A stretch of 52,126 nucleotides of DNA, from positions 1 through 52,126 of the forward strand of contig JAGLZG010000057.1 of the NCBI GenBank assembly GCA_023131705.1, in the 5' to 3' direction. Numbering within the stretch: the stretch's first letter is position 1; every line of letters begins with the position of its first letter. The DNA comes from Nanobdellota archaeon. GTDB taxonomy: Archaea; Nanobdellota; Nanobdellia; Woesearchaeales; B3-WOES. The notes beneath the pieces were generated by a model. That model was given only the letters and a program-made list of their open reading frames with translations. It searched no databases and was not told the origin of the DNA. Shown here in pieces: positions 25,262 to 51,894 of the stretch. The position numbers and the translations under genes were made by a program.

Positions 25262-26305
25262 ATGATAGCAGACAAGAGTTCAGTGGAAATAAACGAATTC
25301 AACGCATTTGAAAAAATTTTTAAGTATTATGATAAATTGGATTATTTTTTCAATAGATTTAAGACTTTGATTTCTATTGAACTTGACTTAACAAACCTAT
25401 GTGATAGCAATTGTCCTGCATGTACTGGTATAAAAGACAATCCAGTTTCACTCACATTTAATCAAGTAAAAAAGCTTGTAGATGAACTTGCTGATGTATT
25501 TGAAGCAAAGTCTGTTATTATTAGTGGTGGAGGAGAACCTTTATTGCACCCAGATTTTGTAAAAATTTTGTATTATATCAAAGGAAAAGGATTAAAGATT
25601 GGGCTTAATTCAAATGGCCTTTCTCTTGATAGGGAAAAAGCAAAGGCAATAATTGAATGCTGCTCATACATTAGAATAAGCCTTGATGCAGGAACACCTG
25701 AGATGTATAAAAAAACACATGGTTTGGGTGAAAAAGCATTTCAAAAACTTGTTGGAAATATGAAAATGTTTACAAAGCTTAAGAAAGAACTTAATGGGAA
25801 GGTAGCATGGGGAACAGGCTTTTTAACAAGTGAAATGACAAAACCAGACATTTTAAACTTTTTTAGGTTAAGCAAAGAATGTGGTGTTGACTTTGCACAG
25901 CTTAGACCATTTACAGGGGATTTTACAAAGGTTGATGAAGAATTAGAAAAAGCAAAAGAGCTATATGAAAACAAAAACTTCAAGGTAACAGCATCCTATC
26001 ATAAATACAGGCGTTTTGATGATAAAGAGAAACGTCCATATAAAAAATGTATTGGAATGTTCTTTAATACTGTTGTAACAGCGGACTTTAAGGTATTTGC
26101 CTGTTTGTGTCATAGGCAAAAAAATAAATATTTTATTGGTGATTTAAACAAGAATACACTAAAAGAACTCTGGACATCACCAAGAATAATTGAAGTCTTT
26201 AATAATATAGACTTTTCTGATTGTCCTTACTTTTGCAGGAATGATGATATTAATAGGGGGCTAGATAACATCTCAAAACCTGTTAAGCATGTAGGGTTCC
26301 TTTAG
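25262..26305 (+). CDS. Radical SAM enzyme with C-terminal Cys-rich (SPASM/twitch-like) region
   Basis: CxxxCxxC motif LCDSNCPACTG, glycine-rich SAM motif ISGGGEPLL, and C-terminal cysteines CIGMF...FACLCH...DCPYFC. Confidence 0.8.
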   Translation: MIADKSSVEINEFNAFEKIFKYYDKLDYFFNRFKTLISIELDLTNLCDSNCPACTGIKDNPVSLTFNQVKKLVDELADVFEAKSVIISGGGEPLLHPDFVKILYYIKGKGLKIGLNSNGLSLDREKAKAIIECCSYIRISLDAGTPEMYKKTHGLGEKAFQKLVGNMKMFTKLKKELNGKVAWGTGFLTSEMTKPDILNFFRLSKECGVDFAQLRPFTGDFTKVDEELEKAKELYENKNFKVTASYHKYRRFDDKEKRPYKKCIGMFFNTVVTADFKVFACLCHRQKNKYFIGDLNKNTLKELWTSPRIIEVFNNIDFSDCPYFCRNDDINRGLDNISKPVKHVGFL

Positions 26306-33841: not shown

Positions 33842-35335
33842 ATGACAAATTATCTATCTAGGGGGCTAAAAGGATTGTTTTTTATATTTACTTTTACATT
33901 TCTTGCCTATCTTACAGGTTATGTAACAAGGACATTATTAGCTAGAAATTTAGAAACTTCTCAATTTGGTCTGTTTTATGCTGTTTATACTCTTATTATG
34001 TTTGCTACCATATTTGCTTATTTTGGTTTTGGTGCACCTTTGGTAAAATATATTGTAGAGTTTAAAGCAAAAAAGAAGTATGAAAAACTAACATTTTCTA
34101 TTTTTTTCCCAACTTTAATTATGGCTTCACTTGCTATAATCATCTCTATTTTTTTATTTCTGAGTTCAAATTTTTTAGCAATAAATTTTTTTAAGACCCT
34201 GGAAGCTTTGTTTATAATAAGATTGTTTTCTATAGTTATGATATTAACTGTAATATTTCATACTCTAAATTTAATATTTAAGGGATTTCAAGACTTCTTT
34301 TTTGTTGGTCTTTCTACTTTCTTTGGAAAATTTTCTTTTACAATTTTTGTTATATTATTTCTTTTACTTGGCTTTGAAAAAAACGTGTATTTACCAACTT
34401 ATGCCATATTATTTGGGTTTGTGTTAACCATATTGTTGTTCTTGCCAAGGCTGCTTAAATATAAGGGTTATTTCAGAAAAATAAAATTTTCTTCTGATTT
34501 GGCAAAAAAAATCAAAAATTTTGCATTTGCATCTTTTTTAGCTTCAATTGGTTTATTAATAATTGGTTATGTTGATACTCTTATGTTAACATATTTTAGG
34601 TCTTTGGAAGAAGTTGGAATCTATAATGTTGTCTTACCGACTGTTATGGTATTGAGTATGTTTACTCAATCAGTCCGTAGTGTTTTGGCTCCTATGGTAA
34701 GTGAATTGTGGGCTAAAAATCTTAAAGAAAGATTAAGCAATGGAATAAAAATATTAAGAGATTATTCTTTAGTATTAATAGTTCCTATGATTCTTGTTCT
34801 GTTTGTTTTTCCGAAACCCATAATCACATTATTATTTGGTGCAAAGTATGTTAGCGGTTATTTAGCTATGCAGATCCTTTCTATAGGGATTGTATTTTTT
34901 ACAATTGGATTTATGGACATAATAATCATAAGATTTATTGGAAAACCAAAGGAAACAACAAAGATTATATTCATTGCAGTCATATTTAATGTAATTGCTA
35001 ATTTAATCCTTATACCTCTTTTTGGAATAAATGGAGCTGCTATAACAACAACACTAAGTTATTTTATTGTAATGATATTATCTTCTGTAAAATTAAATCA
35101 TTTTGTTAAGGTAAAATCAAGTTTATCATTTTGGTTTAAGGTTATATTTGCAGCTGTATTTTTTGTAATTACAGTAGCAATCGTTAAGGCATTATTGAAT
35201 ATAAACCAATTTGTTGAGGCTGCGATTTGTTTGATTTTAGCAACTGCTGTTTACCTTGGAATCTGTTATATGTTAAACCTTATTAAAATAAAAGAGGTTA
35301 AATTATTTTTGAGGAGTTTTTTATTGAGAAAATGA
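33842..35335 (+). CDS. MOP-superfamily polysaccharide flippase (Wzx-like)
   Basis: 497 aa with 12-14 hydrophobic helices, the Polysacc_synt-type architecture. Confidence 0.75.
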   Translation: MTNYLSRGLKGLFFIFTFTFLAYLTGYVTRTLLARNLETSQFGLFYAVYTLIMFATIFAYFGFGAPLVKYIVEFKAKKKYEKLTFSIFFPTLIMASLAIIISIFLFLSSNFLAINFFKTLEALFIIRLFSIVMILTVIFHTLNLIFKGFQDFFFVGLSTFFGKFSFTIFVILFLLLGFEKNVYLPTYAILFGFVLTILLFLPRLLKYKGYFRKIKFSSDLAKKIKNFAFASFLASIGLLIIGYVDTLMLTYFRSLEEVGIYNVVLPTVMVLSMFTQSVRSVLAPMVSELWAKNLKERLSNGIKILRDYSLVLIVPMILVLFVFPKPIITLLFGAKYVSGYLAMQILSIGIVFFTIGFMDIIIIRFIGKPKETTKIIFIAVIFNVIANLILIPLFGINGAAITTTLSYFIVMILSSVKLNHFVKVKSSLSFWFKVIFAAVFFVITVAIVKALLNINQFVEAAICLILATAVYLGICYMLNLIKIKEVKLFLRSFLLRK

Positions 35336-36381
35336 AAAAACCATTATTAGAAATCAAAAAAATATGGGACATTTATAATAATCCAAAAGATTATTACAGA
35401 TTTAATTATATTGGTCAAGAAATTAATATATTCTTTGGTAAAAATATTTTGCATAAACATTTAAAAGAAATATCTTGTTCTAAACCATTAAAAATCCTTT
35501 TTGAAGACATAGACTCAATAAAAACCTTAAAAAATGAACTTGAAAAAGATTTTCCAACAAAAGAAGATTCAAATTTAATTATCTCTTTAGGGGGAGCGGT
35601 AGCAATTAATAAAGGAAAAATATTGCGTAATGAAAATAAAAATAGCAGGCTTATAATTGTTCCAACCACATGCGCAAACGATGGATTTTTTACAAACAGA
35701 TATAAAAAAGATAAAAACTCAGCTTCTACAGCTTTAAGTGGGCTTATGCCTGACTTTCTAATTGTTGATACAGAAATGATAAAAAAATTAGTTACAGAAG
35801 ATATGATATATGCAGGATGGGGTGAGTTTTTGTCTTTAATTGCATCATATAATGATTGGAAGGAAAATAATAAAGGCCTAATTGAAAAAGATGAATTAGA
35901 GCTACTTGATAAACTTGTTGATAAGATGTTTAAAGATGCAAGAGATTTTTTTGAAAAAGAAGATGATATTAATAAAAGCGTTGATATTTTGATGCATTTG
36001 CTTTTTATGAAATGCTTATTTATGATGATTTATGATGACAATTCAATAGGGGCTTCAAGTGATCATATGTTTGCTTATAGTATAGAAGGGTTAGGTTATT
36101 GTGATAAGTTAAGACATGGGCAAAAAGTTTTGTTTGGAGCTATTGTATCTTCAGGATGCTATTCTATTATTAATGGAAATGGTTTTGTAGATATGATTCC
36201 TAAAAAAATAGTGGATTATGTTGTAAAAGAGGAATGTTTTAAAAAGATTTTAAATCCACAAGATTTAAAAGTGATTTTAGACAAAGCATTAGTATCAAGA
36301 AACAGGAAAACCATACTTAATAAGATACATAGTGATCACACATTTTACAATAGTTTAGTTAAAGAGATAAAAAATGTTTAG
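35332..36381 (+). CDS. Glycerol-1-phosphate dehydrogenase / AraM-like enzyme (DHQS-like, iron-ADH superfamily fold)
   Basis: SLGGAVAINKGK loop, VPTTCANDGF (cf. G1PDH VPTxxSxDG), AGWGEF (cf. GxGD), and putative metal ligands in SSDHMF and RHGQKV. ATGA overlap with wzx. Confidence 0.55.
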   Translation: MKKPLLEIKKIWDIYNNPKDYYRFNYIGQEINIFFGKNILHKHLKEISCSKPLKILFEDIDSIKTLKNELEKDFPTKEDSNLIISLGGAVAINKGKILRNENKNSRLIIVPTTCANDGFFTNRYKKDKNSASTALSGLMPDFLIVDTEMIKKLVTEDMIYAGWGEFLSLIASYNDWKENNKGLIEKDELELLDKLVDKMFKDARDFFEKEDDINKSVDILMHLLFMKCLFMMIYDDNSIGASSDHMFAYSIEGLGYCDKLRHGQKVLFGAIVSSGCYSIINGNGFVDMIPKKIVDYVVKEECFKKILNPQDLKVILDKALVSRNRKTILNKIHSDHTFYNSLVKEIKNV

Positions 36382-37540
36382 AAATCTTATACTAAAATAT
36401 AGGGTAGAGGAATCATCAAACAAAGAGATGGATATTGTTATAGATGTACTTATACAAAAAGTTATTGCAGATGCTTCTTTAGGAACAGATTATGTATTAA
36501 CTGCAACCGGTCAAGAATTTTCTGTTCATGAAAAACAAGATGATGTTGTTGAGGCTAAAGTTGTAAAAAGAGAAAAAATTGATGATAAAACTACCGAACT
36601 TGTATTTAGTGTCCCTATTTATTTTGAGGAGAAATCTGATTTCTTTCCAATGTTTTTAACATGTACTGGAGAACCGCCAGGATTCCATTCAAATATTTAT
36701 TTAGAGGATTTTTCTTTTGAAGGCGAAGATCCTTTTAAAAATGATTTAGCAAATGGACCAGAGAAGTATAAAAGATATTTTGGTAGAGAAGGCCCTTTTG
36801 TTGGAACAATAATAAAACCAAATCTTGGAACAGATATGGAGAAAAGGCTTGATTTAATAAAGAAGCTTATGATGGCTGGTGTTGATTTTCTTAAAGATGA
36901 TGAAGTTTTTGGGCATAAAAGTTTTGAGGATTTTGAAGAATATGTTATAAAAGTAAATAAAATAAGAGAAGAAGTTTATAAAAAAACAGGCTACAAAGCA
37001 TTAGTTTGTTTTAACATAACTTCTTTAGCTTCAAAAGCTGATGAAATATATAAATTGCCAATAGATGGAATTATGATAAATTTTTTGGCTTTAGGATTCT
37101 CAAAATCATATGATTTGGTACAGAAGTTCAAAGGTAAATGCATTATTCATGGCCACAGAGTAGGATCTGCTATTTTTTTAAGCAGAATTCATAAGAATGT
37201 TCTAATTAAATTAGCAAGCATGATTGGATTAGATAGCACACATATTGGAACATCACAACTAGATAAAATTGAGAAAGATTCAGAAAAGTTAGATACCCCT
37301 TATATAAAAACAATTTTAGCTACATTCACTAAAGTCAATCCAAAATATGTTGAACCCTTGATAAATAATTTTGGAAAAGATATCTTATTTTTACCTTGTG
37401 GAGGAGTTTACAGGCATCCAGGAGGTTTTGAAAAAGGGGTTAGAGCATTTAGAACAGCAATAGATATATATAATAATGAACAAAGTCAATTTTATGATAA
37501 AAAAGCATTTGATAAAGCATTAGCAAGGTGGGGTTATTAA
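36374..37540 (+). CDS. RuBisCO large-subunit-like protein (form IV RLP)
   Basis: IIKPNLG (cf. KPKLG), GVDFLKDDE (cf. DFTKDDE with carbamyl-Lys and metal ligands), IHGHRVG (cf. HxHRA), THIGT (cf. LHSGT) and LPCGGV (cf. SGG). At 388 aa it is short, with a divergent N-domain. Confidence 0.8.
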   Translation: MFRNLILKYRVEESSNKEMDIVIDVLIQKVIADASLGTDYVLTATGQEFSVHEKQDDVVEAKVVKREKIDDKTTELVFSVPIYFEEKSDFFPMFLTCTGEPPGFHSNIYLEDFSFEGEDPFKNDLANGPEKYKRYFGREGPFVGTIIKPNLGTDMEKRLDLIKKLMMAGVDFLKDDEVFGHKSFEDFEEYVIKVNKIREEVYKKTGYKALVCFNITSLASKADEIYKLPIDGIMINFLALGFSKSYDLVQKFKGKCIIHGHRVGSAIFLSRIHKNVLIKLASMIGLDSTHIGTSQLDKIEKDSEKLDTPYIKTILATFTKVNPKYVEPLINNFGKDILFLPCGGVYRHPGGFEKGVRAFRTAIDIYNNEQSQFYDKKAFDKALARWGY

Positions 37541-38403
37541 TGGGAATAAAAAATTTTTTTGAGGAAAAAGGATATTCTGATGCAGAAATAGTTAATGAAA
37601 GGATAGGATTCCTCAATTTAGTATATACTATAAAAGCAGGAGGTGAAACATTTTTCTATAAAAAAGCAGAGGAAAAAACAGGGTTGCCAACACCAATAAA
37701 TCCTGACAGGGTTTTTAATGAGTGGAAAGCAATTAATGCAGCAAAAACAGTAATTCCAGAGCATGTGCCTGAGATATTTGATTTTAGCAAAGAAAACAAC
37801 GTTATTATTACAAAAGCCCCCTCAAAAAAAGAATACACTCTTTTGAGATACGAACTATTAGATGGAAATCTTAATCTAGAATTGATTAAAAAAATTGCGA
37901 TTGCCCTAAAAAAACTTCATACTATAAAACAAGGAGATTTTAATAAGGAATTGTTTGAAAAAGCAAATATAGATTTTTGGTATAAAGAATTAGCAAAAGA
38001 ATATCCTAAAGTTATTGAAAAATTAATAGAGAATCTTAATCAAGAAAAATGTTTAACTCATGCAGACTTTAATCCAAAGAACATTGTTGTTTTTGAAGAC
38101 GGTTTTTATATTATTGACTGGGAAAAAGCTTTCATAAGCAGCCCAGAACATGATATTGGCAATATGCTTGCTCATTTTGTAATTAAAGGAATCCATTTGG
38201 GAAGAGAAGATTATCTTAAGGTTCCTGAAATATTTTTAGAAGCTTATGGTGAATATGTCGATAAAAACATTATTAATGGCCATATAGGGGTACTTATGTG
38301 GGCTAGAATAAAATCCTCTGCAAAAGCAAGATATTTGACATCTGAAACATCACAGAAAGTTCTTGAAGGGGCTCACAAGTATTTGAGAGAGTTTAAGCTT
38401 TAA
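37528..38403 (+). CDS. Small-molecule kinase of the APH / choline kinase / MtnK fold
   Basis: Brenner-type motif LTHADFNPKNIVV followed by IIDWEKAF. The N-terminal region YKKAEEKTGLPTPINPDRVFNEWKAI resembles the MtnK N-lobe. It overlaps the RLP stop. Confidence 0.7.
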   Translation: MGLLMGIKNFFEEKGYSDAEIVNERIGFLNLVYTIKAGGETFFYKKAEEKTGLPTPINPDRVFNEWKAINAAKTVIPEHVPEIFDFSKENNVIITKAPSKKEYTLLRYELLDGNLNLELIKKIAIALKKLHTIKQGDFNKELFEKANIDFWYKELAKEYPKVIEKLIENLNQEKCLTHADFNPKNIVVFEDGFYIIDWEKAFISSPEHDIGNMLAHFVIKGIHLGREDYLKVPEIFLEAYGEYVDKNIINGHIGVLMWARIKSSAKARYLTSETSQKVLEGAHKYLREFKL

Positions 38404-38424
38404 ATAAATTTTGATGAAATTACA

Positions 38425-39342
38425 ATGAAACCTGTAAAAGAATGTATACCATGTCAAAGAAAGAGAGCTATGCTTATTACTAAAAATCTTAGTGAAGAGA
38501 AAAAGAAGGAATTGACCAAAAGGATAAATGTTCTTTTCTCTAATCTGGATATGAATAGATGCACAATAGATATAGCTAATGAGAGGAATAGGATAATCAA
38601 AGAAATTGCAGGTAAAGATGCATTAATGGATGATTTAAGGGAAGATAGTATGAAGGCTGCTGAAAAGATTTCTCCTAATCTAGAACAAGATTTAGAAAAA
38701 ATAAAAGATGAAGAGGAGAGATTTTGTAAGGCACTTAGAATAGCTTTGGCAGGAAATGTAATTGAATTTGGGACTACTAATCATGTTGTTAAAATAGGGG
38801 AAATAGAAAAAAGAGTACATGAAACAATTAAGCAGGAACCAGCAATAGATGACAGCAGAATGGTTTATGAAATTGTTCAAGCTTACAACCATTCAAACAG
38901 AATATTATATCTTGTTGATAATGCTGCTGAGATAGCATTTGACAGGTTGTTCATAAAGGAATTAGTAAAACATGCTATTGTTGTTATTGCAGCTTTATCA
39001 GAGCCGGATCAGGATGATGCTTGTGTAGAGAATCTAAAACGTTTTGGTATAGACAAGATACCTAATTGTGAAATTATAACAAAAGGGAAGTATATAGGGG
39101 CATATTTTCCAAACACAACAAAGCAATTTAAGGTAGAGTTTGAAAAAGCTGATTTAATTATATCAAAAGGCATGGGGAATTATGAGAGTCTAAGTGAATA
39201 CTCAGATAAGATAATAAACAAAGTTGTATTTATGTTAAAATTAAAATGTGGACCTGTTGCAGATAGCTTTAGTGATTTCTTCAATATAGGAAACAAACTA
39301 GAAGTTGGGGCAAATGTAATCAAGTTTGCTTCTAAAAATTAA
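38425..39342 (+). CDS. DUF89 (ARMT1-like) metal-dependent phosphatase family protein
   Basis: Family motifs VDNAAEIAFD (DNxxE...D) and KGMGNYESL. Confidence 0.7.
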   Translation: MKPVKECIPCQRKRAMLITKNLSEEKKKELTKRINVLFSNLDMNRCTIDIANERNRIIKEIAGKDALMDDLREDSMKAAEKISPNLEQDLEKIKDEEERFCKALRIALAGNVIEFGTTNHVVKIGEIEKRVHETIKQEPAIDDSRMVYEIVQAYNHSNRILYLVDNAAEIAFDRLFIKELVKHAIVVIAALSEPDQDDACVENLKRFGIDKIPNCEIITKGKYIGAYFPNTTKQFKVEFEKADLIISKGMGNYESLSEYSDKIINKVVFMLKLKCGPVADSFSDFFNIGNKLEVGANVIKFASKN

Positions 39343-41494
39343 TGAAATGAATAATATTAAAAAAACAAAAAATTATTGTATGATAGGTCATGTATCAATT
39401 TTAACTTCTAAAACTAAAGAAGGTAATAAAGGTAAATCCAATTCTGATATAATTAAAGAAAGAAAACCCTCTCAAAGAATAATGTCCTTGTTGACTAGTT
39501 TTGAGCAAAAAGATTATAAAAAAAACTATGTTTTCAAAAATTATTCAAAGACAATAAAAAACAAGAAACCAATAGAGCAATTTAAGTATTATCTGGAAAA
39601 CAATCCAGTTGTAATAAATGACAATGAACTTCTTGTAGGAGGTATCTTCCTAAGGTTTAAAGATATTAAGATGGAATTAAAGGCAGGAAATGCCTTTAAA
39701 AGGGTAATTGGAGATTCATATTTTTCAACAGGAGTTAAAGGGTATAGTATAAGAACTCCTCCAGGATATAAAAATATAATAAAATTTGGTTTTGCAGGAC
39801 TAAGAGACAAATCATTAAGATTATTAAAAAAAGAGAAAGATCCTGAAAAGATAAAGTTTTTAGAGAACAGCGCTAAAGCCAATGATTTAGCTTGTAAGTT
39901 TATAGCAAAATATTCTGAAGAAGCCTTGAGGAAATCTAAAACTGAAAAAAATCTTTCTAGAAAAAGAGAGTTATTGAAGATAGCAAAATGCTGTCATGAT
40001 ATTTCTGTTAGAGAACCACGTCATTTTTATGAAGGGGTCCAGATTATCTGGTTTACTAAGGTCTTTGGTGCTGTTGGTGGCTTAGGAAGATTTGACCAAT
40101 ATCTTTGGAAATTATTTAAAAAAGACCTCAAGGAAGGAAGATTGAATTATGAGGGGGCATTAGACCTTATTGAAGATTTTTGGATAAAATGCAATTTATG
40201 GAATCAGGGATGGACTGCACCAAATGATTCATGGCAGCACATTACATTATCAGGATTAAAACCTAATGGGGGAGATGGTACAAATGATTTAACTTACTTA
40301 TGTTTACAGGCGCAATATGATCTAAAATTACCAGAACCTAAAGTTAGTGTGAGGTTTTCAGGTAAACATCCTGAAGGGTTAGTTGCTGAAACCTGTAAGG
40401 TTCTTAGATTGGGATTAGGAATGCCTTCTATCTATAATGATAAAGTTGTTATTCCTGGTCTTAAAAGATTAGGGATAAGTTTGAAAGATGCAAGAGATTA
40501 TACAAATAATGGATGTTCAGAGATAATTTTAGATGGTAATTCAACAACTTGTTTTGCTCAAATAAATCTTTTGGATATATTGAATAAAACAATAAGAAAA
40601 AAAGCATTTTCTAATTTTAAAGATTTGTTAGATACATATAAAGTTGAGATTGAAAAAGAGATACAAATTCCAGAAGTAAATTCTGTTACACACCCTCTTT
40701 TAGCTTCTACAATGGATGATTGCCTTTTGAAAGGCTCTGGCAATTGCGCAAGATACATTCTTAAAGGAAGCCTTGCTAATGCAACACCAAATGCAGTGGA
40801 TGGTTTAGCAGCAATAAATAAACTGGTTTTTGAAGATAAAAAATTATCATTGAACAAATTTATTAAAGCATTAGATTCTAATTTCAAGGATAATTCTATC
40901 AGGCACTTAATTATTAATGTTCCTAAATATGGAAATGATGAATCTTATGCAGATTTAATAGCAAAGGATATTGCAGAATATTTTTGTGATGCTGTTTTAA
41001 GAAAATATCCTAATAAAAAAGGAGATAATATCAAGGTTTCTCCAGGATTATTGGCTTTTGATGTACAATATCTTAGACATATGGATGCATCTCCAGATGG
41101 AAGAAAGAAAGGAGAGCATGTTGCTAATGCTATAAGCCCAGCTATTGGGAGAGATTTAAAAGGACCTACAGCAGTAATCAATTCTGCTAGGAAAATAGAT
41201 TTTAGAAAAGCAAGCTATGGCTCTGTTCTTGACATGGTTTTTTATTCAGGTTTATTTTCTCAACAAACAGAAGACAGATTTGTTGATTTTATTAGAACTT
41301 TTTTAAAGTATCCATCTACAGCAACATTACATGTCAATTTTCTTGACATAGAACTTTTGAAAGCTGTTCAAAAAGATCCTAAAAACCCAGCGTATAAAAA
41401 TATAATTGTAAGAGTATGGGGATTCTCAGCTTATTTTGTTGATTTGGACAAGGATTTACAAGATCATATTATCAAAAGGACACAATTTATGTAA
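39326..41494 (+). CDS. Glycyl radical enzyme, eliminase/dehydratase-type Cys loop
   Basis: C-terminal glycyl radical motif VRVWGFSAYFVDL and Cys loop NNGCSEIIL (GCxE, as in the diol/choline/hydroxyproline eliminases, not the CC of PFL). The start codon is uncertain (39326, 39347 or further in). Confidence 0.85.
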   Translation: MLLKINEMNNIKKTKNYCMIGHVSILTSKTKEGNKGKSNSDIIKERKPSQRIMSLLTSFEQKDYKKNYVFKNYSKTIKNKKPIEQFKYYLENNPVVINDNELLVGGIFLRFKDIKMELKAGNAFKRVIGDSYFSTGVKGYSIRTPPGYKNIIKFGFAGLRDKSLRLLKKEKDPEKIKFLENSAKANDLACKFIAKYSEEALRKSKTEKNLSRKRELLKIAKCCHDISVREPRHFYEGVQIIWFTKVFGAVGGLGRFDQYLWKLFKKDLKEGRLNYEGALDLIEDFWIKCNLWNQGWTAPNDSWQHITLSGLKPNGGDGTNDLTYLCLQAQYDLKLPEPKVSVRFSGKHPEGLVAETCKVLRLGLGMPSIYNDKVVIPGLKRLGISLKDARDYTNNGCSEIILDGNSTTCFAQINLLDILNKTIRKKAFSNFKDLLDTYKVEIEKEIQIPEVNSVTHPLLASTMDDCLLKGSGNCARYILKGSLANATPNAVDGLAAINKLVFEDKKLSLNKFIKALDSNFKDNSIRHLIINVPKYGNDESYADLIAKDIAEYFCDAVLRKYPNKKGDNIKVSPGLLAFDVQYLRHMDASPDGRKKGEHVANAISPAIGRDLKGPTAVINSARKIDFRKASYGSVLDMVFYSGLFSQQTEDRFVDFIRTFLKYPSTATLHVNFLDIELLKAVQKDPKNPAYKNIIVRVWGFSAYFVDLDKDLQDHIIKRTQFM

Positions 41495-41495
41495 A

Positions 41496-42251
41496 ATGAA
41501 ATTAAATAAGTCAAATAAATCAGAGAAATTAATTGTTTTTGATATTAAGAGGTTTGCAATACATGATGGTCCAGGTATAAGGACAACTGTTTTTTTACAA
41601 GGATGTCCTTTAAGATGTGGCTGGTGCCATAATCCTGAAGGAATTAGTATTGGTAAAGGTCCAAAATCTAAAAAAATTGAATTAAATGAATTATTTGAGG
41701 AAATAATTAAAGATAAACCTTTTTATGAGATTTCTAAGGGGGGAGTTAGTTTTTCTGGTGGAGAGCCAATGCTCCAATTTAAACCGCTTACTAAACTTTT
41801 AAGAATGTGTAAGAAATCCAAGGTTAATACAGCAGTGGAAACTTGCGGACATTGCAATTGGGAAGCTTTTGAAAAGATAATCCCTTTTGTTGATTTGTTT
41901 TTTTATGATTTGAAGCATATTGATAATAAAATTCATAAAAAAGGGACTGGAAGCAGTAATAAAATAATTCTTGACAATCTAAAAAAGCTTGATAAAAGGG
42001 GATGTAATATTGTTATTAGAATACCTCTTATTTCTGGTTTTAATGATGACAAAAAAACCTTTTCAGATATTGGAAAATTTCTTTCAGAATTAAAAAACAT
42101 AAGATTTATAGAAGTTCTTCCTTTTAATGTGTTTGCAGAATCAAAATACTCTAAGCTTGGGAAAAAGATTGATGAGAAATTTACTAAAATTTTATCTCAG
42201 CAGAAGATTAATGAATTAACAGAACCCTTAAGAAAGGAGATTAGGAAATAA
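41496..42251 (+). CDS. Glycyl radical enzyme activating enzyme (radical SAM, short PflA-like form)
   Basis: FAIHDGPGIRTTVFLQGCPLRCGWCHNPE and SGGEPMLQ. The start is set to ATG 41496, 1 nt after the GRE stop. The tracked ORF begins at 41436, inside the GRE. Confidence 0.85.
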   Translation: MKLNKSNKSEKLIVFDIKRFAIHDGPGIRTTVFLQGCPLRCGWCHNPEGISIGKGPKSKKIELNELFEEIIKDKPFYEISKGGVSFSGGEPMLQFKPLTKLLRMCKKSKVNTAVETCGHCNWEAFEKIIPFVDLFFYDLKHIDNKIHKKGTGSSNKIILDNLKKLDKRGCNIVIRIPLISGFNDDKKTFSDIGKFLSELKNIRFIEVLPFNVFAESKYSKLGKKIDEKFTKILSQQKINELTEPLRKEIRK

Positions 42252-42269
42252 TTTTATTGTTGATAGACT

Positions 42270-43712
42270 TTAACAAACAATTTTTAACTTTCGCTTTAAA
42301 AAAGGAACAACATAATTAAGGATTCTTAATTTTTCCAATAGCATAATCTTTTTTAGATAATTTGGATGGGTTTTTAGGAATTTACTCTCACTTAACATTT
42401 TTATAAACCAATTAGGCGTTATTGTGCTCGCGAGAATGTATAAACTATTGTAAAACCTTTCATAATCTTTTCCTTTATCTTTATTAAATCTCCAGTTAGT
42501 ATGCATCTTATTACTATACTGCTCGAGATCATCATGTTTTATAAAACCTTTCTCCAATGCTAAATTTGTTAGCTCTGTATTTGGGAAATAAATAAGTGAG
42601 AATATTATTAAATCAAAAGGTTTCCTCAGTTTTAAGAGAAGATTAAGAGTTTCTTCCTTGTTTTGTTTAGTTTCAAATGGGTTATCAACTATTAAATGAT
42701 ATGTTACATTTATTCCCCACCTTTTTAGCATTTTAGAAACATCTATTAACATTTTATTAGACATAAATCTTTTATAAAGTCCTTGTCTTATCTTTTCAGA
42801 ACCAGATTGAATTCCTACAAAAACTCTCTCTAAATTAGCTTCTTTAAGTTTTGTTAGGATTTCTTCATCACAGAACAGAGGATGTATGTTGATGTAAAAC
42901 GGAATGTTAATGTGTTTCTTGTATTTTTCTGCAAATTCCAGGACCCATTTTCTATCCATAAGAAAAACATCATCTCTTATATCTACTATCTTTATATCAT
43001 AGTTTTCTTTTAATTCCTGCAATTCCTTTATAACATTATCAACACTCCTTCTTCTTATGTAATTACCACATTCCTTCTGGGCATTTCTTAATGAGTTATT
43101 GCCACAATAAGTGCAGGAATAAGGACATCCTCTTGCACCCATTATATATGCAACCTCTATCTTTTTTAGTTCTGTTTTTATTGTGTTATCTTCTATATAA
43201 TATTTGTTCTTATCTGTCCAGTCTGCAAATTCTTGTTTGTTTGGGTCTGTGAACTTTCTTAGTTTGTTTCTTATTATCTTACCATTTTTATTGACCCAAA
43301 TATTTAATATGCTATCTGTCCTTTTTTGTATGAGATCTGGTAATGCTTCTTCAGCTTCTCCAACACATATATAATCTGCTTCTTTAATACATTCTTCAGG
43401 ATTAGTTGTTGGATGAAATCCACCCCAAATGACTTTTGCATTCGTGTTCTCTTTAATCAATTTTGTTATCTTTTTAGATAGCTGAAAGTAATGAGACATT
43501 AAACTTATTCCTACAAAATTAGGATTTAATTCTTTTATTTTGCTGATTAGTAAATTAAATTCCTGTTCTGTTGGATATTCCAGTTTGTTTTTTTGGTATG
43601 TATCTTTTAGAAAAATAGTATGAACTTCAATCTTTTTATTGTATAGAGTTTTATGTAATATTCTAATTGGATGATTCCTGAAATCATAAAATGCTATTAA
43701 AACAATCTTCAT
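42270..43712 (-). CDS. B12-binding-domain radical SAM enzyme (class B)
   Basis: An N-terminal Rossmann-like B12-binding-type domain (MKIVLIAFYDF...GISLMS...VIWGGFHPT) followed by GARGCPYSCTYCGN (CxxxCxxC). Confidence 0.75.
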   Translation of the reverse strand: MKIVLIAFYDFRNHPIRILHKTLYNKKIEVHTIFLKDTYQKNKLEYPTEQEFNLLISKIKELNPNFVGISLMSHYFQLSKKITKLIKENTNAKVIWGGFHPTTNPEECIKEADYICVGEAEEALPDLIQKRTDSILNIWVNKNGKIIRNKLRKFTDPNKQEFADWTDKNKYYIEDNTIKTELKKIEVAYIMGARGCPYSCTYCGNNSLRNAQKECGNYIRRRSVDNVIKELQELKENYDIKIVDIRDDVFLMDRKWVLEFAEKYKKHINIPFYINIHPLFCDEEILTKLKEANLERVFVGIQSGSEKIRQGLYKRFMSNKMLIDVSKMLKRWGINVTYHLIVDNPFETKQNKEETLNLLLKLRKPFDLIIFSLIYFPNTELTNLALEKGFIKHDDLEQYSNKMHTNWRFNKDKGKDYERFYNSLYILASTITPNWFIKMLSESKFLKTHPNYLKKIMLLEKLRILNYVVPFLKRKLKIVC

Positions 43713-43731
43713 AAATACATACCTTTTTTAA

Positions 43732-44871
43732 TTAAAATGTTTCGTCAAAAACCATTCCAACAACTTCTTCTGTTATTTCAATTGGATCACGACCTGTAAG
43801 TACATCCATAGTATTTTTTATTATCCTTGCTTTGTCATCTTGTGTTATTCCTAATTCACTTAATCTTGTTTTTTCTCCTGTGTCTTTAATTAGTTTCTTC
43901 ATTTTGTTACCAAATTCTTCTACTGTTTTGCAATCAACAACATTAGCCATTTCCAATATCTCATTTTTAACTTCTTTACCACATTTCTCTGCATAAATAT
44001 TTAAAAATGCAGGCAAGGGCAAGATACAAGCATATCCATGGTTAATGTTGTGGAATGTTGTAAGTGGGCATGAAAATGAATGTGGTCCAACTGTTCCTGT
44101 TTGAGTAAAAGCAAGTCCAGCGTATAGGCTTGCTAAAGCCATGTTTGTTCTTGCATCAATATTTTCTGGTTGGTCTACTGCCGTTTTTAAATTATCAAAC
44201 ACCATTGTTATTGCTTTTAATGCAAACATTTTTGATATAGGGTTTTTGTTGCTGTTTGATAGGCAAGATTCAACTGCCTGAGCTAGCACATCATATCCTG
44301 TATGGGCTGTTATGTGTTTAGGCATTGTTAGAGTCAATTCAGGATCAATTATTGCAATATTAGGATACATGTATTCACTTCTTATACCCATCTTTATGCC
44401 TGTTTCTTCATCTGTTATTACAGATGCAATAGTTACTTCTGATCCTGTACCTGATGTAGTAGGTATAGCTATTAATGGAATACTTTCTCTCCCTATAATT
44501 CTTCTTTTGTGGATATAATCATTAATTGTTCCAGCGTTTGTCATTAACATAGCAATAGCTTTTCCAGTGTCCATTGCACTTCCACCACCTATAGCTATTA
44601 TTAATTCTATTTTATTTTTCTGAGCAAGTCTTTTTCCTTTTTCAATTATTTTTGAGTGAGGATTTGGTTCAACATACTCAAAAATAGTTAAATTACAATC
44701 TTTTAGTTGCTTAAGTAATCTCTCTTTGAGTTCTAGTTTTTCCATCAATACTTTTTCTGTTACAAGAAGTATGTTTTTTACATTAAAATCTTGTTTAATA
44801 TATTTACCAATCTTATTAAACTCCCCATTACCAATATGTAGTTTTACTGGCATTTCATATTTGAAACTCAT
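43732..44871 (-). CDS. Iron-containing (group III) alcohol dehydrogenase
   Basis: IAIGGGSAMDTGKAIA, IPTTSGTGSE and His-rich metal site motifs. The start is set to MSFKYEMPVKLHIGNGEF (44871), the normal family N-terminus. The tracked ORF extends to 44976. Confidence 0.8.
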   Translation of the reverse strand: MSFKYEMPVKLHIGNGEFNKIGKYIKQDFNVKNILLVTEKVLMEKLELKERLLKQLKDCNLTIFEYVEPNPHSKIIEKGKRLAQKNKIELIIAIGGGSAMDTGKAIAMLMTNAGTINDYIHKRRIIGRESIPLIAIPTTSGTGSEVTIASVITDEETGIKMGIRSEYMYPNIAIIDPELTLTMPKHITAHTGYDVLAQAVESCLSNSNKNPISKMFALKAITMVFDNLKTAVDQPENIDARTNMALASLYAGLAFTQTGTVGPHSFSCPLTTFHNINHGYACILPLPAFLNIYAEKCGKEVKNEILEMANVVDCKTVEEFGNKMKKLIKDTGEKTRLSELGITQDDKARIIKNTMDVLTGRDPIEITEEVVGMVFDETF

Positions 44872-45028
44872 TTTGTTATTTTTTATTAGAAGTAAAGGAG
44901 GATATATAAAGGTTTTTGTTAATTTTAATTTTTGTAAGTTATAAATGAAAACTTTGTTATTGAAAATTGGATTCATAAATCATAAATACATAACTTTTAT
45001 AAACTAACCAAAGTTTTTCTATTTTAAA

Positions 45029-45766
45029 ATGTTCGATAATTTCAAAAAAAAAGTAAAAGAAGAAACAAAAGTCAGAGTATTCTATACAGAAAAAATAACT
45101 AGGAATATCACTCCTTTAATAACCAAACTTCTTTTATTAACACCAATAACAGCAAACCAAGTTACTTTTATTATGCTCTTAACAGGACTAGTTGCTGCTT
45201 TTTTATTTGTTTTTGATATCCAATCATATGCTATAATTGGTTCATTATTGTTGATTTTACAACATACCTTAGATGCAGTTGACGGAGAAATAGCAAGATA
45301 CAAAAAAATATCTTCTCTGAGAGGAAAATATCTAGATATAATAACTCATTATACAACTGAACCTGCACTTTTTATTGGTATTATGTTTGGAATTTTAAGG
45401 TCAAATCCAACAATAACTATCATAATAGCTGGAATTTCTTGTGCAATATTTATCTCCTTAATCAATTTAACTTATTTAATAAAAAAATATATAGTAATAG
45501 AACAAGTAGCTAAACAAGGAAAATGGAAAACCGTAAAAAAAGAGAGAAATAAAAATATCCTATCAAAGATTTATAGACCTTTAGCACCAATATTCAGATG
45601 GCCAGAATATCATTTTGTTGTATTATTGGCCTCTATATTTTATAGACTTGACTGGTTGCTGTATTTCTATGGATGCACCCTACCAATAATATTCTTAATT
45701 AGATCATTTGTTGAATTTTATGCTATACCCAAAGATATAAAAAAAATCAAGAAAATAATATGGTAA
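45029..45766 (+). CDS. CDP-alcohol phosphatidyltransferase-family membrane protein
   Basis: Signature LDAVDGEIARYKKISSLRGKYLDIITH (DxxDGxxAR...GxxxD), with about 6 hydrophobic helices. The last signature Asp reads His. Confidence 0.7.
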   Translation: MFDNFKKKVKEETKVRVFYTEKITRNITPLITKLLLLTPITANQVTFIMLLTGLVAAFLFVFDIQSYAIIGSLLLILQHTLDAVDGEIARYKKISSLRGKYLDIITHYTTEPALFIGIMFGILRSNPTITIIIAGISCAIFISLINLTYLIKKYIVIEQVAKQGKWKTVKKERNKNILSKIYRPLAPIFRWPEYHFVVLLASIFYRLDWLLYFYGCTLPIIFLIRSFVEFYAIPKDIKKIKKIIW

Positions 45767-45767
45767 A

Positions 45768-46508
45768 ATGAAAGCTTTACTCTTTGCAGCAGGAAGGGGA
45801 AAAAGAATAAGTGAATTAGCAAAAGATATTCCAAAACCTCTGTTAGGAATAGCAGAAGGAAAAACCATTATTGAAAATCTATTAGATATGCTTTTATTAA
45901 ATAATGTTAAAGAAGCTGTTATTGTTATTGGTTTTAAAGGAGAAAAAATAATTGAAAAATTAACTAACAATTATAAAGGAATAAAGATTACCTATGTTTT
46001 GAATAAAGACTATGAAACAACAAACAGTGCTTATTCTTTTTATGTTGCCAGAAACTATGTAAAAGAAGGATGCTTGCATTTTAATGCAGATAATGTAATG
46101 CACCCAAAAATAATTGAAATACTTATTAATGCTGAAAAAGAGAATGCCTTTATGTATGATGATATGAATCCTCCATGTGAAGAGGATTGCAAAGTTAGAA
46201 TAGATGAGAAAGGAGCAATACTTGACTTAGGTAAACAGATGGATCCTTCAAATACCCAGGGATGGATTATAGGAAGCGGTAAATTCTCAGCAGAAGGTAT
46301 CAAAAAAGTAGTTGATATAATGGAAAATGATATTGAAAAATGGAAAAAGCTTAATATACCATTACTTCTTTTTGGGCAGGGCATTGATGTTTATGCTGTG
46401 AGCAGTAAGGGTTATCCTTTTGGTGAGATTGATAATGTAGAGGATTTAGAAAAAGTAAGAAATGAAGTTTACCCAAAGATTTTAAAAGACATTCAAAATT
46501 TAACTTAG
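45768..46508 (+). CDS. Nucleotidyltransferase (LicC/MobA-like, phospho-alcohol or sugar-phosphate cytidylyltransferase candidate)
   Basis: N-terminal MKALLFAAGRGKRISELAKDIPKPLLGI; 246 aa. It starts 2 nt after the CDP-alcohol transferase stop. Confidence 0.65.
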   Translation: MKALLFAAGRGKRISELAKDIPKPLLGIAEGKTIIENLLDMLLLNNVKEAVIVIGFKGEKIIEKLTNNYKGIKITYVLNKDYETTNSAYSFYVARNYVKEGCLHFNADNVMHPKIIEILINAEKENAFMYDDMNPPCEEDCKVRIDEKGAILDLGKQMDPSNTQGWIIGSGKFSAEGIKKVVDIMENDIEKWKKLNIPLLLFGQGIDVYAVSSKGYPFGEIDNVEDLEKVRNEVYPKILKDIQNLT

Positions 46509-47673: not shown

Positions 47674-48996
47674 ATGAAAAATACTATTGAAAAAGTAACA
47701 AATAATAATTTGTGTAATGGATGTGGAACATGTATCGGAATTTGCCCTGTTAATGCAATATCTCTTAGGAAAAATCTTTCTGGTAATTTTTATCTTCCTT
47801 TAATAGATAAGGAAAGATGCATAAATTGCGGGAAATGCTATAATGTATGCCCTGGACATTCTGTCGATTTTAAAAAATTAAATCAAAAAATATTTGGAAA
47901 ACAACCTGAAAATAAATTAATTGGTAATTTTATAAAAGCATATACGGGGTTTTCTAAAGATGAGAATCTGAGATTCAATTGTTCTTCTGGAGCTTTAGTT
48001 ACAGAATTGCTCTTATTTTTATTAGAAAATAGAGAAATTGATGGAGCTTTAGTTACAACAATGAATGAGAAAAATCCATTAGAACCCAAAGTAATCCTTG
48101 CTAAAACCAAAAAGCAGATTCTAAATGCTTCAAAATCAAAATACTGTCCAGTTGCTCTTGGGGTAGGATTGAAAGAAGTTCTAAAAAATAAAGGAAAGTT
48201 TGCAGTAGTTGGGCTTCCTTGTCATATACATGGAATAAGAAAAGCGGAACAATTGATTCCTGATTTAAAGGACAAGATAAAATTTCATTTTGGCCTAGTT
48301 TGTATGCATACAATGGGATTTTTAGCAACAGAATATTATCTAAAATCTCTTAATATAAAAAAAGAAGATATCAAAGAAATACAATACAGGGGAAAAGGTT
48401 GGCCCGGTTTTACATCAATTTACCTTAAAAATGGAAAAAAGATTGAAATACCAAGAAACAATAAAAAAAAGAAAAATTTCAAACAAATATTGGATTATGA
48501 AACAGCATTCCACCTAAGTTTTATACCTGAAAGGTGTTTAACTTGCACTGATGGTTTGAATGAATTGGCAGATATAACTTTTGGTGATGCATGGTTACCC
48601 GAATATTTAAAAACTGATAATAAAGGAACTTCTTTAGTTATAACGAGAACAAAAAAAGCAGATGAATTAATAGAAAGAGTCAAAGCAAACAAAAAAATAG
48701 AACTAAATGAACTACCTATTGAATCAGTAATTAAGGGACATAAAAATGCTTTAATATTCAAAAAAAGTTTAAAAGCAAAGACATTATTTCTGAAAAAACC
48801 AAATTATAACCAAGATTTAATAAAAAATGTTACTATAAAAAATTGGATACTTTCATTTATTTCCATAATCTTCTCAAAAATTTCAAAAAGAAGGTGGTCA
48901 TGGTTATTTTTGAATATATACCCTTTTGTTTATCTCCTATCTTCACGGATTTATTTTTTCTTCAGAAAATTAAAAAATAGGTTTAAAATTTATTAA
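47674..48996 (+). CDS. FrhB-like (coenzyme F420 hydrogenase/dehydrogenase beta subunit family) flavo-iron-sulfur protein
   Basis: Two ferredoxin motifs, CNGCGTCIGICP and CINCGKCYNVCP, followed by an FrhB-like body and a C-terminal hydrophobic tail. Convergent overlap with the pyruvyl transferase gene. Confidence 0.7.
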   Translation: MKNTIEKVTNNNLCNGCGTCIGICPVNAISLRKNLSGNFYLPLIDKERCINCGKCYNVCPGHSVDFKKLNQKIFGKQPENKLIGNFIKAYTGFSKDENLRFNCSSGALVTELLLFLLENREIDGALVTTMNEKNPLEPKVILAKTKKQILNASKSKYCPVALGVGLKEVLKNKGKFAVVGLPCHIHGIRKAEQLIPDLKDKIKFHFGLVCMHTMGFLATEYYLKSLNIKKEDIKEIQYRGKGWPGFTSIYLKNGKKIEIPRNNKKKKNFKQILDYETAFHLSFIPERCLTCTDGLNELADITFGDAWLPEYLKTDNKGTSLVITRTKKADELIERVKANKKIELNELPIESVIKGHKNALIFKKSLKAKTLFLKKPNYNQDLIKNVTIKNWILSFISIIFSKISKRRWSWLFLNIYPFVYLLSSRIYFFFRKLKNRFKIY

Positions 48997-50173
48997 TGAA
49001 TCTGCTTAATATTTTTGTATTTTTCAAACAAAGTTTCTCAATTTTCGGTATTTTTTCTTTTAAATTTTTTTCTATCTTTTTCTTATTTAACCATAACTGC
49101 TCAAATTTTAATTTAAATTTATTAAAATCAACTTTTTGGTAGTTGAAAACATATTCTTCAAGGTTAAAAAGCTGCATAACTTCAACATATTTGTGGCTCC
49201 ATCCAAGGACAATTGTTGGAACTTTCATTGAGGTTGAGGCAACTATAGAATGATATCTTGAACCAATAAATACTTTACACAAACCAATTATTGCTTTGAG
49301 TTCTTCAGGACCATAATTTTTCTCTATTATCCTTATTTTATCCTTATTTTTACATTTTTTATACACTTCTTTGGCAACAAAAACATCGTCTTTTCCTTTA
49401 ACACTCACATAGTGTGGAATAAAGAGAATATTCACATCTAAATTTGAATTTAGATAGTCTGTAAGTTTAACCAAGAAATCAACATATCTTTTGTTTTTTT
49501 TATAGATGTACTCATTTACAGCAATACCTATTATTTTTTCATTCTGCTCTATTTTTTCATTCTTTATTATTTGATTAATTCTGTCTTTTCCAATAGGCTC
49601 TAAAAGAAAGGCACTGTCTGGGAAAACATAATCTGCTTTTATTCCAATTTGCTTTAAGTAATTTTTACTGGCATTGCCCCTTACAGTTATTAGCTTCACT
49701 TTTTTAAGAGCATATTTTGCAAGAATCCTATTTGATAATTTTTTAAATGGACCAAAAGACTGGCTGTACATTATAACTGATTTTTTTAGCATAAAAGCTA
49801 ATTTTAATCTTAGAGCTAATCCTAAGTTTACATTGAATTTAAAAGCATCTGTAAAAGAGATACCATTTAAATCCAGAATAACATCTGCATTATTGTAGGC
49901 ATTCAGAACTTTGTCTTTGTTCTTTAGCTTTCTATTGAAGAAAAATCTTAAAGGCAGAACAATATATTTAACTGGATTATTAGATAAATAACTCATATCT
50001 ACTATATTAATCTTATATTTATCACAATATTTTTTATCGTAATCAGCATTAGGAGATAACATAGTTATTTCTAATGGTTTTATCAGCGTTCTTAGAGCAT
50101 TAGATGTGCTTATTAACATTGCTCCCGCCCCTTTATTCTGAAAATGGGTTCCTGTTATGAGTATTTTTGTCAT
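48983..50173 (-). CDS. Polysaccharide pyruvyl transferase (CsaB/WcaK family)
   Basis: C-terminal family block FIGSRYHSIVASTSMKVPTIVLGWSHKY; 396 aa. Confidence 0.8.
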   Translation of the reverse strand: MTKILITGTHFQNKGAGAMLISTSNALRTLIKPLEITMLSPNADYDKKYCDKYKINIVDMSYLSNNPVKYIVLPLRFFFNRKLKNKDKVLNAYNNADVILDLNGISFTDAFKFNVNLGLALRLKLAFMLKKSVIMYSQSFGPFKKLSNRILAKYALKKVKLITVRGNASKNYLKQIGIKADYVFPDSAFLLEPIGKDRINQIIKNEKIEQNEKIIGIAVNEYIYKKNKRYVDFLVKLTDYLNSNLDVNILFIPHYVSVKGKDDVFVAKEVYKKCKNKDKIRIIEKNYGPEELKAIIGLCKVFIGSRYHSIVASTSMKVPTIVLGWSHKYVEVMQLFNLEEYVFNYQKVDFNKFKLKFEQLWLNKKKIEKNLKEKIPKIEKLCLKNTKILSRFINKF

Positions 50174-51369: not shown

Positions 51370-51894
51370 TTATTGTTCTTTAAACAGGTTTACTATTTTT
51401 TTTATTATTTTAGATGCAGAAGCATCACTATTAATATTTATTATATTTATCTTCCCCCCATAACTTTCTATTATCTTTCTCTCATTTTGATTAATTGCTG
51501 GTTTTTCTTCTGTAGCATCTTTTGGATCAATAACATAGTCCCCACCTTTGCAATATATTTTTGGCTTTAATTCTTTTAGTATATTTTCTATTGTGGGATT
51601 ATAGAATATAAATGTATAATCAACACACTCTAAGGCTGATAAAACCTCTGCTCTTTCTTTTTCTGGTATAATTGGTCTTTTTTCATCTTTATAGGCTTTT
51701 ATTGAACTATCAGAATTTAGAGCAACAATTAGTATACCTCCTAATTCCTTGGCTTTTTGTAAATATTTCACATATCCTACATGGAGCAAATCAAAACCCC
51801 CATTTGTAAAAACAACTTTCTTGCCTTGCCTTTCAGCATATTCCATTATTTCTTTTATTTCTTCTTTTGTCTTTATTTTTTTATTAGATTCCAT
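51370..51894 (-). CDS. D-glycero-beta-D-manno-heptose-1-phosphate adenylyltransferase-like cytidylyltransferase (RfaE domain II / HldC)
   Basis: VVFTNGGFDLLHVGYVKYLQKAKELGGILIVALNSDSS...RPIIPEKERAEVLSALECVDY...KGGDY, colinear with RfaE domain II. Confidence 0.75.
   Translation of the reverse strand: MESNKKIKTKEEIKEIMEYAERQGKKVVFTNGGFDLLHVGYVKYLQKAKELGGILIVALNSDSSIKAYKDEKRPIIPEKERAEVLSALECVDYTFIFYNPTIENILKELKPKIYCKGGDYVIDPKDATEEKPAINQNERKIIESYGGKINIININSDASASKIIKKIVNLFKEQ

Follow-up and report, generated by a model that had tools for sequence, protein, structure and literature searches.

A 52,126-nt contig of a Nanobdellota archaeon (GenBank JAGLZG010000057.1; hereafter the window, meaning this whole stretch) encodes a compact glycyl radical enzyme (GRE) next to an activating enzyme without a ferredoxin insert. 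The GRE gene (positions 39347-41494, + strand; 715 aa) and the activase gene (41496-42251, + strand; 251 aa) belong to a block of five genes inserted into a conserved cassette of a surface-glycan island. The motifs and fold of the GRE, its orphan status, the architecture of the activase and the insertion into the cassette were directly observed. Our preferred reading, held at a little under even confidence, is that the two genes form a functional pair, consisting of a GRE of the Cys-x-Glu class (1,2-eliminases and isomerases) and a secondarily minimised activase, and that this pair tailors a head-group precursor of the polyol-phosphate type.

The glycyl radical enzyme and its active site

The longest open reading frame (ORF) of the GRE gene spans positions 39326-41494 on the + strand and gives 722 aa from a TTG start. 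Translation from the first ATG (39347) yields 715 aa, the length of the database gene call (P0001); this ATG lies 4 nt past the stop of the upstream DUF89 gene. The N-terminus cannot extend further, because an in-frame stop precedes 39326 and the upstream gene ends at 39342; together with the independent assemblies described below, this excludes the much longer N-terminus that the initial annotation had allowed for.

Pfam searches recovered both the barrel and the radical domain of the superfamily (PFL-like PF02901, 4e-99; Gly_radical PF01228, 5e-13). The two motifs on which the initial annotation was built were confirmed. The glycyl radical motif RVWGFSA (41411-41431, + strand; Pfam Gly_radical) places Gly692 opposite Gly763 of glycerol dehydratase (GDH), and from 41411 on the C-terminus carries the full fingerprint RVxG[FWY]x6-8[IL]x4Qx2[IV]x2R, with the sequence RVWGFSAYFVDLDKDLQDHIIKR. 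The cysteine loop NGCSE (40508-40522, + strand) aligns Cys390 and Glu392 with Cys433 and Glu435 of GDH. The catalytic-Cys column was invariant across 338 homologues, and the arrangement G-C390-S-E392 is the Cys-x-Glu (CXE) motif, a hallmark of GRE eliminases and isomerases (PMC13450708). An identity as pyruvate formate-lyase (PFL) was ruled out by the lone active-site Cys in NGCSE, in place of the Cys-Cys pair of PFL, and by the score with the PFL model TIGR01255 (68 bits, against a cut-off of 994).

The AlphaFold model of the GRE, made from a 91-sequence alignment, showed a complete barrel (pLDDT 88.6, pTM 0.91). Disorder was confined to residues 1-30 and 108-130; with residues 1-30 disordered, the folded enzyme therefore has ~670-685 aa. 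The protein is shorter than the usual eliminases, as the initial annotation had noted. Its shortness results from many small internal deletions, mainly after residues 101-133 and 416-444. A Foldseek search with the model returned near-equal matches to characterised eliminases and isomerases (TM ~0.8, 22-26% identity), namely glycerol dehydratase, two propanediol dehydratases, PflD, YbiW, CutC, HypD, IseG, IslA and HpsG. The best PDB matches were 1r8w, 9rco, PflD and CutC, with glycerol dehydratase at the top; PflD was fourth in the fold search.

Relatives of the GRE were searched in 5.8 billion proteins (word-indexed search), in 1.84 billion representatives (exhaustive HMMER search), by profile search and in the GTDB species genomes. 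Apart from the GRE itself, the word-indexed search gave only matches of up to 33% identity, and the GTDB genomes held no relative above 34%. The best non-self matches of the exhaustive search had 36-42% identity, and no relative above 42% was found across the sets of 5.8 and 1.84 billion proteins. Most of these matches were themselves small (12 of the 13 best had 692-744 aa), and the profile search added further compact GREs of 671-722 aa. The closest relatives (P0091, P0266-P0282 and P0093; 36-42% identity, 670-745 aa) have the loop deletions and the RVWGFSA and NDGCSE motifs in common with the query, and most compact metagenomic relatives carry RVWGF where RVAGY is usual. Compactness is therefore a trait of a loose, wholly uncharacterised metagenomic GRE radiation of 670-750 aa, with the signature 'RVWGF'.

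Within the family, the GRE stood alone on a long branch of a neighbour-joining tree, with two compact clades as its sister group; this tree and the activase tree below are crude neighbour-joining or distance trees. The best score with the NCBIfam equivalogs (HypD, CutC, HpsG/HpfG, NF007437, IAD, HPAD and PFL) was 299 bits, against cut-offs of 994-1150, and the subfamily model TIGR01774 gave 356 bits, against 678. The suspicion that this is a distinct GRE lineage was therefore well founded: identities are low, the equivalog cut-offs were missed, the fold matches are equal and the branch is long. Neither the tree, nor the NCBIfam scores, nor the fold search placed the protein in a tight cluster with a characterised GRE.

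For residue mapping, the GDH sequence was rebuilt from the alignment, its numbering was checked, and it was added to the 91-sequence alignment. His164 of GDH falls on Arg136 of the query (codon 39752-39754, + strand). His281 and Ser282 lie in a loop that is deleted in the query, Asp447 falls in a gap (the region is two residues shorter), and Tyr339-Gln-Asn corresponds to Trp296-Gln-His. The residues typical of B12-independent glycerol and 1,2-propanediol dehydratases (His164, Ser282/Asp447) are thus all replaced or missing. The 338-sequence MAFFT alignment misplaces the query loop around Arg136, and smaller alignments were used for that position. The assignment is based on the conserved x-x-P-P-G-[YH] spacing in these alignments (R-T-P-P-G-Y in the query and H-Y-P-P-G-H in its nearest relatives; H-V-S-V-D-Y in GDH).

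In GDH, His164 protonates the leaving hydroxyl (PMC13450708). The same column holds Asp in CutC and Gln191 in IseG, the latter one of three sulfonate-anchoring residues, matched to the column after correcting a 20-residue offset in the chain numbering; both residues contact the leaving group. Judged by alignment, the residue at the Arg136 position points towards the leaving group in each of the three classes examined. Arg at this place would fit an anionic leaving group, or an anionic neighbour of it, and phosphate is the obvious candidate. The compact 'RVWGF' GREs keep the His at this position, and LRN where the query has WQH. CutC (C-N cleavage) and IslA, IseG and HpsG (C-S cleavage) have the CXE chemistry in common with the query, but none of their specificity residues (the Asp/Phe/Thr set or the Arg/Gln/Arg triad) was found in it, the CutC model scored 269 bits against 1050, and ferredoxin inserts are present in their activases. 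The exchange of the dehydratase His for Arg goes beyond the initial annotation, as does the biosynthetic gene context described below.

The activase and its relatives

The activase gene begins 1 nt after the GRE stop, as is expected of an adjacent cognate activase. It encodes a GRE-activating radical SAM enzyme with the motifs DGPGIR, CPLRCGWCHNPE and GGEP, of which the second is the CX3CX2C cluster motif (41604-41639, + strand; read from the translation). Between CX3CX2C and GGEP there are 43 residues and no Cys, compared with ~96 residues and 8 Cys in ferredoxin-bearing activases. The two CX2CX2CX3C motifs expected of PFL2-type (TIGR02494) activases were absent. An alignment with E. coli PflA (3c8f), the PFL activase, showed past the cluster motif one 3-residue gap and no ferredoxin-sized insertion. 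The absence of a ferredoxin insert from this 251-aa protein, reported in the initial annotation, was thereby verified.

The comparison with PflA drawn there holds for size, but not for type. PflA has the same size and single-domain architecture; its partner PFL has a Cys-Cys pair, whereas the partner of the window's activase has one Cys. The TIGR02494 model matched the activase with 262 bits (cut-off 174, passed in two stretches), and the PflA model TIGR02493 failed with 190 bits (cut-off 232). In the distance matrix and tree, the activase was nested among ferredoxin-bearing ones, and E. coli PflA was the most distant. Because of this nesting, the insert is taken to have been lost secondarily, and the protein is an eliminase-type (PFL2-type) activase and not a PflA orthologue.

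By far the most GRE activases contain a ferredoxin-like domain; the only ones described without it are those of PFL and of class III ribonucleotide reductases (PMC13450708). We fetched 84 GRE loci, which gave 64 other activases adjoining PFL2-type GREs. Eleven of these had no Cys-rich insert, two had a degenerate and one had half an insert, and insert-less activases are therefore commoner than the literature summary implies. The insert-less proteins had 251-260 aa (with the count begun 22 residues ahead of the cluster motif), stood at several separate places in the distance tree and were all paired with GREs of 787-880 aa. On this tree, they arose several times beside long GREs. Eight of them, of ~260 aa, were paired with a clade of long GREs (801-880 aa) from gut and rumen Clostridia metagenome-assembled genomes (MAGs; L017, L019, L020, L041, L045, L059, L071 and L077). 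Further cases were L046, L065 and L068, and the isolated ones include a Promethearchaeati MAG.

Loci were read for three of the nearest compact relatives of the GRE (L082-L084). Two had 304-aa activases with Fer4 inserts beside the GRE, and the third had no called activase. Compact GREs thus occur with ferredoxin-type activases and insert-less activases with long GREs; the two features are therefore independent, and the proposal that they jointly mark one clade did not hold. The unusualness ascribed to the pair is real as regards its motifs and architecture, but the small size is common to most of the best GRE relatives and the missing insert to the 11 surveyed activases. The surroundings of the three compact relatives were rich in URO-D-family genes, esterases or other genes unrelated to those of the window, so the neighbours of these relatives give no lead on the GRE itself. 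One of these loci (L082, on a 1.48-Mb contig, ENA ERZ25072999) encodes a 683-aa compact GRE, 41% identical to the query, amid five URO-D-family paralogues, together with two ferredoxin-type activases and a second GRE of 813 aa. This locus resembles a separate GRE pathway, as yet uncharacterised.

The five-gene block and its surroundings

The block occupies positions 38404-45028 (6.6 kb), between a kinase gene and a CDP-alcohol transferase gene of the host cassette. Its first gene encodes a DUF89/ARMT1-like metal-dependent phosphatase (38425-39342, + strand; Pfam PF01937, 2.9e-45) and is followed by the GRE and the activase. A B12-binding radical SAM enzyme (42270-43712, - strand; Pfam B12-binding and Radical_SAM) is convergent with the activase. 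The last gene encodes an Fe-dependent alcohol dehydrogenase (Fe-ADH; 43732-44976, - strand; Pfam Fe-ADH, 2e-49), whose longest ORF has 414 aa and which gives 373 aa from the ATG at 44853, matching the 373-aa gene call. Packing on the + strand is tight: the kinase gene ends at 38403 and the DUF89 gene starts at 38425, and the genes upstream of the GRE (flippase, G1PDH-like, RuBisCO-like, kinase and DUF89) all lie on the same strand and overlap or nearly abut.

Upstream of the block, the cassette consists of a dehydrogenase of 349 aa resembling glycerol-1-phosphate dehydrogenase (G1PDH) and AraM (35332-36381, + strand; profile matches to 3ce9, 2e-12, and 4rgq, 9e-8), a RuBisCO-like protein of 388 aa (36374-37540, + strand) and an APH-fold kinase (37528-38403, + strand). 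Downstream of it are a CDP-alcohol phosphotransferase-family membrane protein (45029-45766, + strand) and a nucleotidyltransferase (45768-46508, + strand), both assigned by Pfam.

Two related metagenomic versions of this cassette lack the block, which is thus an insertion. In L090 (proteins 62-77% identical), the genes for the G1PDH-like dehydrogenase, RuBisCO-like protein, kinase, CDP-alcohol transferase and nucleotidyltransferase are contiguous. In L086-L089, the same cassette has a HAD hydrolase between kinase and transferase, and its flanks match those of the window (YfhO, flippase, LPG-synthase and PMT_2 genes). The DUF89 gene is absent from L086 and L090, and in L086 its place is taken by a HAD phosphatase. 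The Fe-ADH of L086 is merely 34% identical to that of the window, and the latter is therefore counted with the block. The link between the Fe-ADH and the GRE pair, assumed in the initial annotation from adjacency, is in this sense substantiated: all are members of one inserted block.

Orthologues of the upstream cassette genes in L086, L090 and L091 were 44-75% identical. Only four versions of the cassette were found in the 5.8 billion proteins, where the RuBisCO-like protein had only three relatives (75, 72 and 51% identity); the cassette lies beside a flippase gene within glycan islands. Near the 84 other GRE loci, no homologues of cassette genes occurred. A metagenome scan with the B12 radical SAM enzyme gave a best match of 36% identity, with no context in common, and the enzyme had a weak match to AprD4 (8e-18).

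We also considered that the pair might be artefactual or in decay, whether through chimeric assembly, truncation of the GRE or an accidental deletion in the activase. The GRE was a singleton at 90% clustering, and unitigs from single runs break ~120-150 bp within both block ends. However, identical copies of the GRE, the activase and their neighbours, including the B12 radical SAM enzyme, were recovered in an independent per-run assembly (L001), and a second sample (L092) yielded a strain variant with the same arrangement and an activase of the same length and 99% identity. Read depth was uniform (~23x), and each outer block junction was spanned by single contigs from independent assemblies. 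The catalytic motifs are all intact and the fold model is confident, so that we consider such an artefact highly improbable. The G+C content was ~30% throughout the window, with no compositional break at the block. The unitig breaks fell at the same points in two samples (38541-38570 and 44824-44853), with no repeat there, and may reflect strain variants with different content at the block site. Flanking repeats were sought at the block ends and none were found. The GRE and its neighbours derive from cold-seep metagenomes, an anoxic origin that suits a GRE.

The whole 52-kb window is a surface-glycan island, with glycosyltransferases, PMT_2/YfhO-type membrane transferases and a Wzx-type flippase, as well as DegT aminotransferases, RmlC, GDP-mannose dehydratase, methyltransferases and a pyruvyl transferase. 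No bacterial microcompartment (BMC) domain was detected in any window ORF of at least 120 aa, and the flanks of the GRE are filled by other genes. The window annotation contains no transporter or regulator genes near the GRE, and no tRNA genes were found in the window. Scans of the window for promoters and terminators gave matches at or below shuffled expectation.

Several other genes of the island were recorded. The RuBisCO-like protein keeps the carbamyl-Lys/Asp/Glu motif DFLKDDE, the HGHR and THIG motifs and the GG loops, with Asn for Lys177 and Cys for Ser379. It was closest to form III RuBisCO (118 bits, cut-off 497), and why such a protein should belong to a surface-decoration pathway is unexplained. 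Radical enzymes are unusually frequent in the island: positions 25262-26305 encode a SPASM-domain radical SAM enzyme, and a cytidylyltransferase-like ORF at 51370-51894 has a weak radical SAM match. At 47674-50173, an FrhB/FdhB-like Fe-S protein adjoins the polysaccharide pyruvyl transferase. The ORF at 13-576 (- strand) has a sigma-70 region-4 domain (1e-9); as the sole taxonomic pointer within the window, it hints at a bacterium. Two further ORFs (4591-6657, 688 aa; 6725-8323, 532 aa) had no Pfam match or one below threshold; the 532-aa ORF shares 66% identity with a gene annotated as Ulvan_lyase_N with which L086 begins.

Proposed function

From these data we infer which chemistry the pair performs, on what class of substrate and in what biosynthetic role. 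A nucleotidyltransferase together with a CDP-alcohol phosphotransferase follows the scheme by which alcohol-phosphates are activated with CDP and transferred, known from the CDP-glycerol, CDP-ribitol, CDP-inositol and CDP-choline systems. By this logic, the host cassette probably assembles a small head group, a polyol-phosphate or alcohol-phosphate, and attaches it, while the inserted block resembles an optional tailoring module. The cassette would make a CDP-activated alcohol-phosphate, which would then be transferred to a surface glycan or lipid.

Following family chemistry, the activase, with its single [4Fe-4S] cluster and S-adenosylmethionine, would place the radical on Gly692, from which a thiyl radical would form on Cys390 and take a hydrogen from the carbinol carbon of the substrate. 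Glu392 would then deprotonate the hydroxyl, the beta leaving group would be expelled, and return of the hydrogen atom would give a carbonyl product. The substrate that the GRE most likely deoxygenates is a precursor of the polyol-phosphate type, for instance glycerol-1-phosphate, with water or phosphate as the leaving group, and the co-inserted Fe-ADH could reduce the resulting carbonyl, for a net deoxygenation. Glycerol-1-phosphate or a like polyol phosphate is the first candidate because of the G1PDH-like gene at the head of the cassette, the match to glycerol dehydratase and the exchange of His for Arg. In apramycin biosynthesis, the radical SAM diol dehydratase AprD4 and the reductase AprD3 deoxygenate a sugar-like building block, by radical dehydration of a vicinal diol and subsequent reduction. 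Only the pathway logic is comparable; the radical step there is carried out by a different superfamily, and no homology to the GRE is implied.

The pair could instead be part of an autonomous catabolic or fermentative module, in which a dehydratase of the diol or glycerol type works with its Fe-ADH (DhaB1/DhaB2-DhaT-like); such a module would have landed in a variable island and be unlinked to the cassette. In both sequence and fold, the top matches are B12-independent glycerol and 1,2-propanediol dehydratases, and DhaB1 of Clostridium butyricum (PDB 1r8w/1r9d; 1e-79, TMq 0.81) has the CXE loop, the Gly-radical domain, the ten-stranded barrel and an Fe-ADH partner in its pathway in common with the GRE. 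An Fe-ADH also adjoins the GRE in two ordinary GRE loci (L006 and L012), and the related cassettes without the block show that it is dispensable for them. However, the GRE is only ~26% identical to DhaB1 and ~70 residues shorter, and the dehydratase pocket is lost, with Arg136 for His164, Trp for Tyr339, the His281/Ser282 loop deleted and the Asp447 region two residues shorter. The activase, in contrast to DhaB2, has no ferredoxin domain, and the gene context is biosynthetic and not that of a dha regulon. No transporter, regulator or microcompartment genes lie nearby, the block is spliced between co-directional cassette genes with spacers of 4-22 bp, and it carries a phosphatase and a B12 radical SAM enzyme that would be superfluous for simple diol fermentation. 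We therefore regard a catabolic module of this kind as unlikely.

A second alternative is a PflD/YbiW-like isomerase, which would open or rearrange a cyclic sugar- or cyclitol-phosphate by C-O cleavage without net elimination and would feed the RuBisCO-like and dehydrogenase steps. The same CXE loop serves the C-O lyases PflD and YbiW, which act on sugar 6-phosphates, their fold match is comparable to that of the dehydratases (with PflD ranking as given above), and the neighbouring kinase, phosphatase and RuBisCO-like protein all handle phosphorylated sugars. On the other side, identity to PflD and YbiW is 23-25%, the model NF007437 (formate C-acetyltransferase, PRK09983) gave 297 bits against a cut-off of 1109, and related cassettes function without the GRE. 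PflD and YbiW are also catabolic enzymes of enteric or gut bacteria, of ~765-810 aa and with ferredoxin-bearing activases. We consider an isomerase quite unlikely. The remaining probability lies with explanations outside those considered here.

Several observations weigh against the tailoring of a polyol-phosphate precursor. No GRE relative has the same context, so that no co-occurrence statistic is available; the block was seen in only one population, and the contexts of the nearest compact relatives are catabolic-looking. Arg occupies the His164 position in ~4% of homologues, and its contact with the substrate is derived from the alignment alone. The product of the host cassette is unassigned, and the roles of the RuBisCO-like protein and the kinase within it are unexplained. 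No RNA runs were listed and no expression data were found. A GRE with an Fe-ADH is also a classic catabolic pairing.

A more specific version of the proposal is that this is the first GRE for biosynthesis, a lyase that would remove an anionic group linked through oxygen (phosphate), or a hydroxyl, from a polyol-phosphate. The resulting deoxy head group would then be activated with CDP and fixed to the cell surface, and a single-cluster enzyme would activate the GRE. We consider this full version doubtful. A 2026 review mentions no biosynthetic GRE (PMC13450708), and no relevant work turned up in a literature search on GREs in glycan biosynthesis and on the RuBisCO-like cassette.

Arg in place of His at the leaving-group position offers a concrete, testable hypothesis on substrate specificity. 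The function of the ferredoxin domain in GRE activases is not established, and the step that most limits the characterisation of new GREs is their activation (PMC13450708). The minimal activase of a CXE-type GRE and the 11 others are convenient test cases for this function, and single-cluster activation, if true, would make the ferredoxin domain dispensable for eliminase-type GREs. If the proposed function is true, a GRE in surface decoration would widen the role of the family and would point to a deoxy or otherwise modified head group in uncultured anaerobes.

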